From Escherichia coli (GTDB lineage: Bacteria > Pseudomonadota > Gammaproteobacteria > Enterobacterales > Enterobacteriaceae): a stretch of DNA of 64,000 bases. The notes beneath the pieces were generated by a model, which saw only the letters and a program-made list of their open reading frames with translations, searched no databases and had not been told where the DNA came from. The translations under genes and the position numbers were made by a program. Numbering within the stretch: position 1 is the stretch's first letter; every line of letters begins with the position of its first letter. Below, in pieces: positions 8,861-16,000 of the stretch. The stretch is from the NCBI RefSeq assembly GCF_017348835.2, contig NZ_CP071375.1. One strand, given 5' to 3'.

Positions 8861-11725
8861 TTATACAGAGGATTTCGGTGCTTCAACAGGAGGTATGCCC
8901 TCACAGGAGACATCTATAACTATCGCTGATAAGCGGTCTCTTTTATCAACCGGCACAGTTTCATTAAGCATATTTTCCATTGCACTGGCGTTTTCAGGTT
9001 GAGATGTATTTTTCGCCAAATGAGGCAGGGAATTCGGTCGAGCAGAACCAAACCAAAAAACCAGATAGATACCGTGACCAGCAGCATCGGGGTTTTTAGT
9101 ATAAAGCTTGTCCAATTGCCCATTAAGTGCAGTCCAGACATCACGATGATAATCACGCTTTATCTCGATAGGTATTTTTATCTGCGGTAGTGAAACAATG
9201 ATATCTGCCCTTTTATCAGAAACCATGTGTCCTTCTGGTTCACAGCTTATTTTTAATGGATTAAGCCGGACACGGAGTAAATCCAGAAAAATATTACGGC
9301 AACTCTCTTCAGGTTTAGGCGTTAGGGTACGGCCATAGCTGTCTTCATTCCAGAATTGCTTATAAATATCGGTATTTTCATTGGCAATTCGGTTAGAAAT
9401 ATCCCGTATATGATCAAGCAATAATGAGTAAAGATCCATTATGTTGGCAGGCGTTTTATTCATCAATGTACTTACAGTCTGCTTCCAGTCGGCATGATGG
9501 AACTGTGATTCTCTATAACGAATTTTCTGATTGCTTTGGGCATGTGAGAGATGATCCCGATAACTTTCACATTCAGGCAGCAGTAATAAGCGCTCAAGTA
9601 CTTCACTAGCATCGTATAAAGAAATAGAAGAAACTTCGCTAATCAATGCTCTGATAAATTCTGCATAATCCCAGCTATTTCTTGAACCATGACTTTCATC
9701 TACTGGATGATAAGCATTAGGGAAATGCGTTGCTGAAACTCTAATGATGGTTTCTAATTGAATTAAAGAAAGCTCTTGATTATTATTTTCTCTCCGTCTT
9801 CTGGTATTACCAGTTAACTCACGCACAATCCAAATGATCTCAGGATCTGACTTAGCCTCAGATACAAACAAATCATAAGCCTGTTCGGGTTGTAGCAAAT
9901 AACAACACGATAACCAAATATGATAGTTAACCTTCCTTAATACACCTCGTCGATTAACCATAAGTTGAGATAGTTCCAGTAATTCTTCGTGTATCTGTGG
10001 ACGTGCCAGTAGCCATTCAACCAAGCTTTGTGTATGATTAATATCATCAGGATATTTTTTAGCAAAATACATAACTAAAGGGATGACGTGAGAATCTCGT
10101 AGTGATTTCTCATGTAGAACATAGTTCAATGCCATAATATGCTGAAATTTATTTTTCATACAAAAGTCTATTATATAACTATATGTTTCTATGAAAAGAT
10201 CTTCTCGATACAGTATTACATACTTTTTCCATGGTATTGAATATATAGTGATAACATTGTCTTCTTTAACATGGATTGGTAATCTCGCATCCAATGTTAT
10301 TAACATTTTTAGCAATTCATTATCCCAAAGAGTTATGTCATCTTCCATTTCCCATAGTTCGTCACTTCCCGCCAATATAGCATACCACCATTCATAATAT
10401 TCACCTTTTATTAAGGAGTCATTAATATCATCTATAGACGGAAGATCTGCACGGCCTAATAGAGCCACAAGACCAGAAATGGCATCTACAGCACTTTTAT
10501 CCCCAAGATTCGATGAAAGACGCTCAAAGCAGGATAGTTTTTCATCTACATCGTTATATAATGCATAATAAATATATGCAACATGCTTAAGCCATCCTAA
10601 ATGTTCACCCGAAACAATCTGTTCTCTTAATTGCTGAAATTCTACTTTATCTGAATCAATAATATTTTGTTTTTCTCTCTCCCTTTCTATCCTGCTGATA
10701 TTAATTTTTACCCGCCAATCATCAATCTCACAGACTAATGCACCTTCTAAAATAGAAAAAAGCTCATTACTCATTCCACCATAAGTAATAAGAAAATCAA
10801 ATACCTGCTGTGGCGGAGCATCACAACTCCAAAGAGTAGGAAATGCTAATTGATAAATAAACTTTGTCTTATCTGTAGTACCTCCATTACTCGATAAATA
10901 GTGTGTGAAACGGGATAATAAAAGCTCACGAGGAATGACGCCAAATGTACTTTGTCCAAACTCATGTAAAAAAAGATATCCTGTATTATATCTAGTAAAA
11001 GATGTTATTGCTGCATCTATAATATCTTCATGCTGCCAATCACGTTCTTTTAGCAACTGGACAATCTGGGTTGTTTTATTATCAAAACTACTATAATGCT
11101 CTTTATACCAGTGATGAACATACAGACATATCCATATCTGTTCAGCAGTATACTGATCTTTCGTATTAAGGATAATCACTAGACCACTTTCAATATAATA
11201 CAAAACTTCATGACGATTTCTTGGTGATGAATACCAGTTGTCTATATTTTCATTTTGGTATTGATAGAGGCATTCAAATATTGTCATTATCTCCTCGGCA
11301 GGAACAACATCAATTATCCCCCATAGAGATCCTACCGGCAAACGTTCTTTAATAATACTTAAGGTATCAATCAGGAGTTTTGCCACATCCAATGCAGAAA
11401 AATAATCTTTATAAAGCAATTGAATAATGTGGTTACGCAATCGAATATTGTCGTGATTAATCTCGTTCAATTCAGAATAAATTTTGACGACTTCTTTAAT
11501 ACCTGATAGACCCGAGTGTATTAATGCCGTTATCGCTTCTTCTTTCTCGGCATATGAATGACGTTCAGATTTAACAACATCAATTAAATCCTCATTCAAT
11601 GACAATATTGGGGTTGCGACAGATAGAGATTCGAGAATAAGCATACGCAGAGAAAATCGCGATTTGGGATCATGAATAATCAGGCGCAAGTGTGCTTCCA
11701 TCTCCTCGCTCACGAAGCCATTCAA
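8861..11725 (-). CDS. Large hypothetical protein with C-terminal PD-(D/E)xK-like nuclease motif; N-terminus may be truncated by the adjacent IS
   Basis: 954 aa, AT-rich, mostly helical-looking. C-terminal RADIIVSL...IPIEIKRD fits D-x(n)-E-x-K of the restriction-endonuclease fold. No Walker A motif found. Frame stays open upstream to a stop inside the IS end, so the true start is uncertain (TTG at 11725 or ATG at 11701). Confidence 0.6.
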   Translation of the reverse strand: MNGFVSEEMEAHLRLIIHDPKSRFSLRMLILESLSVATPILSLNEDLIDVVKSERHSYAEKEEAITALIHSGLSGIKEVVKIYSELNEINHDNIRLRNHIIQLLYKDYFSALDVAKLLIDTLSIIKERLPVGSLWGIIDVVPAEEIMTIFECLYQYQNENIDNWYSSPRNRHEVLYYIESGLVIILNTKDQYTAEQIWICLYVHHWYKEHYSSFDNKTTQIVQLLKERDWQHEDIIDAAITSFTRYNTGYLFLHEFGQSTFGVIPRELLLSRFTHYLSSNGGTTDKTKFIYQLAFPTLWSCDAPPQQVFDFLITYGGMSNELFSILEGALVCEIDDWRVKINISRIEREREKQNIIDSDKVEFQQLREQIVSGEHLGWLKHVAYIYYALYNDVDEKLSCFERLSSNLGDKSAVDAISGLVALLGRADLPSIDDINDSLIKGEYYEWWYAILAGSDELWEMEDDITLWDNELLKMLITLDARLPIHVKEDNVITIYSIPWKKYVILYREDLFIETYSYIIDFCMKNKFQHIMALNYVLHEKSLRDSHVIPLVMYFAKKYPDDINHTQSLVEWLLARPQIHEELLELSQLMVNRRGVLRKVNYHIWLSCCYLLQPEQAYDLFVSEAKSDPEIIWIVRELTGNTRRRRENNNQELSLIQLETIIRVSATHFPNAYHPVDESHGSRNSWDYAEFIRALISEVSSISLYDASEVLERLLLLPECESYRDHLSHAQSNQKIRYRESQFHHADWKQTVSTLMNKTPANIMDLYSLLLDHIRDISNRIANENTDIYKQFWNEDSYGRTLTPKPEESCRNIFLDLLRVRLNPLKISCEPEGHMVSDKRADIIVSLPQIKIPIEIKRDYHRDVWTALNGQLDKLYTKNPDAAGHGIYLVFWFGSARPNSLPHLAKNTSQPENASAMENMLNETVPVDKRDRLSAIVIDVSCEGIPPVEAPKSSV

Positions 11726-16000: not shown

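Follow-up and report, generated by a model that had tools for sequence, protein, structure and literature searches.

The 64,000-nucleotide stretch of the Escherichia coli PE164 chromosome analyzed here (the window; NCBI RefSeq assembly GCF_017348835.2, contig NZ_CP071375.1; strain from a pig, China) contains an IS3-family insertion sequence (IS) of the IS629/IS1203 type, hereafter copy 1, lying between a 5'-truncated eruA gene and a fragment of yeeJ. We conclude, with a probability of about 0.9, that successive IS-associated deletions left copy 1 as their scar and that it is not a fresh insertion. Compared with IS-free genomes, PE164 has lost 7,988 bp at this place, and the right boundary of a genomic island is fused to the middle of yeeJ. 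An initial annotation of the window had read the junction as an IS-mediated deletion or island fusion, and the comparison that it suggested, with IS-free genomes and genomes carrying an intact yeeJ (L025, L015 and MS20657), agrees with the deletion reading.

Copy 1 spans 1,310 bp on the forward strand (11761-13070); the element recognized in the initial annotation is real, but the span given there, 11700-13111, was too wide. Its outer ends are TGAACCGCCCCGGAAATCCTGGAGAC (left) and ...CTCTCCAGGAAACCCGGGGCGGTTCA (right), and the two 26-bp terminal repeats (11761-11786 and 13045-13070) are identical as inverted repeats over their first 13 bases. They enclose, on the forward strand, orfA (11815-12141, 108 aa), for which PGAP annotated a programmed frameshift, and orfB (12141-13028, 295 aa), the DDE transposase part. 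An ALIL frameshift pseudoknot was detected at 12096-12212, also on the forward strand (Rfam RF01497, 120.3 bits, E=2.6e-32), and OrfB scored 307.6 bits against the NCBIfam IS3 transposase model NF033516 (cut-off 160). The size and terminal repeats, together with the -1 frameshift, pseudoknot and DDE transposase, place the element in the IS629/IS1203 group of the IS3 family. In enterohaemorrhagic E. coli (EHEC) O157 and its relatives within the species, IS629/IS1203 has the same length, terminal repeats, orfA/orfB -1 frameshift and ALIL pseudoknot and, at simple insertions, the 3-bp duplication. Identity to the Sakai copy ECs1380/1381, whose record names both IS1203 and IS629, is 94.05%, so that "IS629-like" is a fair name; naming it IS629 proper would call for at least 95% nucleotide identity, which we take to be the ISfinder isoform rule.

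The 3-bp target duplication of this group is absent at copy 1. GAT (11758-11760), composed of parts of eruA codons 389 and 390, precedes the element, and CTG (13071-13073; GTT in the relatives described below) follows it. The initial annotation had reported these unlike flanks while allowing that an identical duplication might emerge on closer reading; re-inspection again gave GAT versus CTG. The missing duplication is attributed to the history of copy 1 and not to the identity of the element. Copies 1 and 2 of the window differ at a single position across 1,310 bases, and copy 2 (24253-25562, reverse strand) is a simple insertion in yeeO with the clean GTC duplication (24250-24252 and 25563-25565) that had been noted earlier. 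In the IS-free draft L015, yeeO is uninterrupted, and its two matches to the window overlap by exactly these 3 bp. About 32 matches in PE164 were returned by a query that contained the IS. A G to A change at 12336, producing Gly66Ser in OrfB ("VYGVRK"), is private to copy 1; all four further copies included in the comparison, from PE164 and its sister strain F2_81 (pig, Australia), have G.

IS-free draft assemblies (L025, L015 and others), located by exact-protein look-ups, display the undisturbed island at asnT. The genes follow in the order integrase, IS66, MazEF, HEPN, eruA (1,354 aa), OLD (518 aa) and yeeJ (2,666 aa), and continue after yeeJ with a glycosyltransferase gene, shiA, amn, yeeN and an intact yeeO. 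Both IS flanks of the window agree with L025 and L015 at 99.96-100% identity, and over positions 9001-11760 the window and L025 do not differ. eruA and the OLD-family ATPase gene, whose 518-aa product resembles GajA and AriA, are divergent, with a promoter region of 250 bp between them; attR and then yeeJ come after OLD. MS20657 (L005), one of six human isolates with the same genes and no IS, likewise has the HEPN gene after eruA and a divergent 518-aa AAA/OLD-family ATPase gene before it. In the IS-free sequence the breakpoints read ccaagGAT/cgctttcc in eruA, gaggct/GATgggtatgg in OLD and gactGTTaCTGcatc (longer form gagaagactGTTaCTGcatc) in yeeJ. By coordinates, the deficit of PE164 is the sum of 1,165 bp of eruA, 250 bp of intergenic DNA, 1,557 bp of OLD, 443 bp including attR, and 4,573 bp of yeeJ. 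The 3' fragment of OLD was not found in the whole PE164 record, the first 5 kb of yeeJ gave no full-length match for PE164, and the window has no free copy of attR, whereas F2_81 has one. These results argue for deletion and not relocation.

On the left side of copy 1, eruA (8861-11760, reverse strand) retains codons 390-1354; codons 1-389, the start codon and the promoter are gone. The 954-aa open reading frame (ORF) of this gene (8861-11725, reverse strand; called at 8861-11701 by PGAP) starts 35 bp from the IS end. As had been noticed earlier, its frame remains open into the IS, for 9 codons (a stop, then SPGFPGRFN within the IS and PWFRNHG beyond the junction). The suspicion that the gene had lost its native 5' end or promoter was well founded: IS-free eruA has 389 additional N-terminal codons preceded by the divergent promoter region. 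In a BLASTP comparison the ORF aligned with residues 390-1354 of the MS20657 protein at 97% identity. The full-length gene of MS20657 (4,065 bp, 1,354 aa) is annotated as encoding a NACHT-domain protein.

Full-length relatives of the 954-aa ORF correspond to the NACHT antiphage protein EruA of the Erebus defence system, which is grouped with Avs10, Hypnos and bNACHT64. The MS20657 protein passes the cut-off of 1000 of the NCBIfam EruA equivalog NF058535 with 1127.6 bits, whereas the remnant in the window reaches 639.8 bits over profile positions 407-1318. According to a 2026 preprint, Avs10-family STAND sensors (Erebus, Hypnos, bNACHT64) are activated by the phage major capsid protein (PMC12803255). 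The window copy differs from EruA in lacking residues 1-389 and with them the P-loop: the Walker A motif GDPGAGKT occupies residues 35-42 of intact EruA, which displays weak AAA matches at residues 28-112, outside the codons retained here. The remnant, beginning at residue 390, gave zero Pfam matches and has no N-terminal P-loop NTPase module. Since 34 blocks of public assemblies contain the truncated eruA product, the left junction is old and shared.

The LA2681-type HEPN gene (7244-8848, reverse strand, 534 aa; Pfam PF18733, E=1.2e-40) is intact, reads in the same direction as eruA and follows it at a distance of 12 bp. Its product is identical to that of F2_81 at 533/534 positions and to that of MS20657 at 521/534, and the exact protein adjoins full-length eruA in IS-free drafts. 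The two genes had been proposed as a candidate operon. The locus is broken, however, since the eruA remnant is without its NTPase; this remnant is best regarded as a pseudogene in a damaged defence locus and not as part of a working unit. The HEPN gene, although intact, appears to be deprived of its upstream promoter. It is taken as the partner gene of eruA in the defence locus and may be a formal component of Erebus. The PADLOC 2023 release recognized neither eruA nor the HEPN gene.

On the right side, the yeeJ remnant (13071-16498, forward strand) starts at codon 1525 of a 2,666-codon gene, in keeping with the earlier remark that the N-terminal region was lacking. Homology to yeeJ begins at 13071, and the yeeJ reading frame, too, is already open within the IS. 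YeeJ is an inverse autotransporter adhesin; the loss of codons 1-1524 removed its beta-barrel domain (PF11924 by Pfam in the intact 2,666-aa product) and left only the 3' Ig-like repeats. Intact yeeJ is present in L015-L024. Moreover, the gene has been hit twice, because a lineage-specific G to A change converts TGG, as found in L015, into a premature TAG stop at 16052-16054. The neighborhood to the right of the IS is the conserved yeeJ-shiA-amn-yeeN-asnW-yeeO. Both the eruA remnant and yeeJ are presumably dead, and the island can probably no longer excise since attR is gone.

The Ig-repeat part of yeeJ is a frequent target of IS629-type elements: across different strains, five or more independent insertion sites fall within about 500 bp. 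Duplications at such insertions in unrelated strains are GTC (L004, 8163-8165), CAA (L006, 524-526), CAA (L007, 524-526) and GTT (L003, 24953-24955), and the two CAA sites have the common context gCAAcgct.

An earlier stage of the same locus is found in F2_81 (NZ_CP043542.1; region of about 1.943-1.964 Mb compared, L002/L003). The eruA/IS junction is that of PE164 at 100% identity, but yeeO lies on the far side. F2_81 has three IS copies at the locus, and the IS next to eruA' and the one in yeeO bound an inverted segment that runs from yeeJ' to yeeO' (window positions 13071-24252). These two copies have exchanged flank triplets, GAT/GAC at the first copy and GAC/GAT at the third, with a 26-bp remnant preceding the latter GAT. 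This indicates that the inversion arose by recombination between inverted IS copies, the partner being the IS at the yeeO site (copy 2 in the window). With the inversion undone, the left part of F2_81 reads eruA'-GAT, IS, 26-bp remnant, GAT-OLD' (last 207 codons) and attR, and the right part reads yeeJ 5' (4,572 bp)-GTT, IS in the opposite orientation, and GTT-yeeJ 3'. The eruA-OLD loss is thus 2,348 bp, from GAT to GAT. The 26-bp remnant matches the right end of a Sakai-type IS629 at 26/26 positions (AAAACC variant) and differs from the present IS by one base, which means that an older, different IS629 copy was once inserted in OLD. The remnant immediately follows a complete IS and precedes GAT-OLD' at L003 19291-19316, L037 131-156 and L038 122-147. 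L038, a draft contig common to four samples, contains the segment from OLD' to yeeJ 5' with the same bounding IS ends as in F2_81.

A state close to that of PE164 was found on L034, a draft contig of GCA_020732225.1. It shows no single-nucleotide polymorphism (SNP) relative to the window over 6.1 kb, but its IS right end is followed by GTTACTGCATC (IS/GTTACTG; L034 110-114) instead of CTGCATC. Among the 5,426 complete genomes searched, IS/CTGCATC occurs in PE164 only. The GTT flank of L034 is the triplet duplicated around the yeeJ copy of F2_81. GTT is thus the older flank, and the CTG of PE164 results either from the additional loss of 4 bp (GTTA) at the IS tip or from an error in the assembly. 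The flanks compare with those of F2_81 as follows: the left GAT equals the OLD-side GAT in F2_81, and the right GTT equals the yeeJ duplication of F2_81, joined to the opposite IS end. Tracing of crossovers by SNPs was uninformative, as the five IS copies of PE164 and F2_81 have 0-3 differing positions.

We propose the following history. The start state, which is observed, was the end of the asnT island with HEPN and eruA reading leftward, the 250-bp divergent promoter region, OLD (a GajA-like ATPase gene) reading rightward, attR and yeeJ. In a first step, the product of which can be seen in assemblies such as F2_81, the IS and the 26-bp remnant of the older IS629 took the place of 2,348 bp, from GAT at eruA codon 389 to GAT at OLD codon 312. 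With this stretch went both promoters and the ATPase-type domains of the two genes (the NTPase domain of eruA and the ATPase domain of OLD). Other copies of this IS inserted in yeeO (GTC) and in yeeJ (GTT). In a second step, which we infer, the right end of the eruA-side IS would have been joined exactly at the GTT site of yeeJ. It would have taken away what remained of OLD, attR and yeeJ codons 1-1524, amounting to 5,640 ancestral bp, together with the 26-bp remnant and, if it was there, the yeeJ IS. A last step would be the 4-bp change of PE164, either real or due to assembly. The right junction may have been formed by recombination within the 13 identical terminal bases of two IS ends, by the transposase directing the joining to the end of an IS already in place, or by a same-orientation insertion, itself unobserved, followed by recombination between IS copies.

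Several observations weigh against this history. The IS end adjoining GTT-yeeJ 3' is the right end in PE164 and L034 and the left end in F2_81. The junction expected of a same-orientation insertion, yeeJ 5'-GTT followed by the left end (GACTGTT/TGAACCGCCCCGGAAATCC), was not found in the 5,426 complete genomes, in metagenome contigs or by exact-product look-ups; these searches are weak for short-read drafts. Short-read drafts break at the IS, so that on L034 the identity of the element as the eruA-side copy is assumed. On the metagenome contig L037, IS/OLD' is followed by an uninterrupted yeeJ, although this yeeJ is a different allele and the contig may be chimeric. The whole linkage eruA'-IS-yeeJ' is present on a single molecule only in the PE164 assembly.

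For the right junction, histories relying only on recombination between whole IS copies were rejected. Such recombination preserves each pair of IS end and flank, and therefore cannot convert the F2_81 state into that of L034 or PE164, the pair of right end and GTT-yeeJ 3' being missing from the F2_81-type state.

The junction could have formed in one step from an F2_81-like state, to which we give somewhat less than an even chance. Thirteen bases, CCGGGGCGGTTCA, recur in direct orientation at two IS ends, the right one of the copy on the eruA side and the left one of the inverted copy in yeeJ. Recombination or slippage within these identical terminal bases, or transposase-directed strand transfer to the edge of the resident IS, would lead from F2_81/L038 to L034 through observed states only. 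It would also account for the flank being exactly GTT at the IS tip. The older junction is of the same kind, with an IS right end abutting the inner edge, at 26 bp, of another IS629 right end. Both junctions without duplication thus put a right end at the repeat edge of another copy (26 bp inside and 0 bp outside), which recalls the IS-end targeting documented for IS30 and IS911 (PMC9333248). However, 13 bp of homology would be poorly suited to recombination over a distance of about 7 kb, and the examples number only two. Moreover, the documented IS30 and IS911 events yield left-right tandem junctions, an orientation that differs from the one found here (PMC9333248); the published form of inverted-repeat targeting was rejected on account of this mismatch.

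A two-step route is given a slightly lower chance. Here an IS in the same orientation would first have inserted at the yeeJ GTT, followed by RecA recombination between the 1.3-kb direct repeats. This is the textbook origin of an IS with unlike flanks, and it yields exactly GAT, IS, GTT, as inferred for L034. The repeated hits of yeeJ by this IS type and the roughly 32 IS-query matches in PE164 make it plausible. Nevertheless, it requires a second independent insertion at the same 3 bp as the oppositely oriented copy of F2_81, and the left-end junction that it predicts is the one missing from the searches described above, which were weak for short-read drafts.

A more general proposition seems improbable, namely that a single event can link the right end of this IS629-type element to the border of the transposase-bound terminal repeat in another resident copy, without duplication, IS-excision enhancer (IEE) or long homology. 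If true, it would define an end-targeted deletion pathway so far undescribed for this IS group.

Deletion by IEE, a PrimPol-type enzyme that stimulates IS629 excision and deletions beside it through microhomology-mediated end joining, is very unlikely. IEE-dependent deletions adjoining IS629 have been described (bioRxiv 10.1101/2023.06.07.543989; PMC9943667), IEE is present in swine enterotoxigenic E. coli lineages (reference listed in bioRxiv 10.1101/2023.06.07.543989), and at the PE164 junction a microhomology of 1-3 bases (A or ACT) is recognizable. However, of a query made of an 840-bp iee probe and an eruA probe, only the eruA part matched the chromosomes of PE164 and F2_81; 738 further records matched the iee part. 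No iee match was obtained in either chromosome record (PE164 plasmids not checked individually), and IEE was set aside for this reason. The element thus differs from EHEC IS629 both in its identity to the Sakai copy and in a chromosome where iee was not detected.

A simple insertion with a mutated duplication, or a mis-join of the PE164 assembly across IS copies, is scarcely credible: the 4-bp difference from a relative without SNPs does fall exactly at the IS boundary, but both half-junctions occur in independent assemblies, the flanks are 7,988 bp apart in IS-free relatives, which refutes simple insertion, and the DNA between them was not found in the PE164 record.

The initial annotation had suggested that transcription of the operon may now depend on the IS end, and promoter scans were run around the junction. 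A standard scan of 11400-13400 returned no sigma-70-like promoter, and a looser scan (at least 8/12 matches) of the strand facing eruA over 11600-12300 returned no promoter-like site. Inside eruA', promoter-like matches were fewer than in shuffled sequences (12 versus 18.5), and at the scan thresholds used no upstream promoter of its own was visible for the HEPN gene. Elements of the IS3 family carry an outward -35 element in their right end, not in their left end. The right end of copy 1, where an outward -35 would lie, faces yeeJ' and not eruA'.

Other features of the region were recorded in passing. The eruA-HEPN part is markedly AT-rich (33-40% GC, versus 52-63% GC in the rest of the island), and the island also carries an IS66 element (tnpA/B/C; 1063-3262) and a MazEF toxin-antitoxin pair (5270-5860). 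The eruA-HEPN-OLD island is located at asnU in the six human isolates, with a RelE/ParE toxin-antitoxin module, versus asnT and MazEF in the pig lineage. Independent decay was seen in other drafts: eruA is split by other transposases in L029, and in L031 OLD is frameshifted and yeeJ is missing. In L028, no OLD or yeeJ gene is called between eruA and the glycosyltransferase gene. Finally, a sugar-utilization cluster (28510-37800; hxlB, SDR, rpe, phosphotransferase system genes and DeoR) follows asnV in PE164 and F2_81. MS20657 does not have this cluster, ldtA coming directly after asnV, and it may be another insertion associated with an asn tRNA gene.

Altogether, this is routine IS-mediated deletion with pseudogenization, a known kind of genome decay and not a new system. 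Truncations, inversions and deletions between copies have been described for IS629/IS1203 (bioRxiv 10.1101/2023.06.07.543989; PMC9943667). For annotation, the 954-aa "hypothetical protein" becomes a 5'-truncated eruA pseudogene, and the locus is not to be counted as a functional defence system. Likewise, the yeeJ fragment is presumably a dead remnant, and the island, without attR, is probably fixed in place. Public assemblies have kept most stages of this decay, namely the IS-free state, the first deletion, the inversion, the second deletion and the 4-bp change. The case thus shows an expanding IS629-type element eroding a defence island and the neighboring adhesin gene in a pig-associated E. 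coli lineage.

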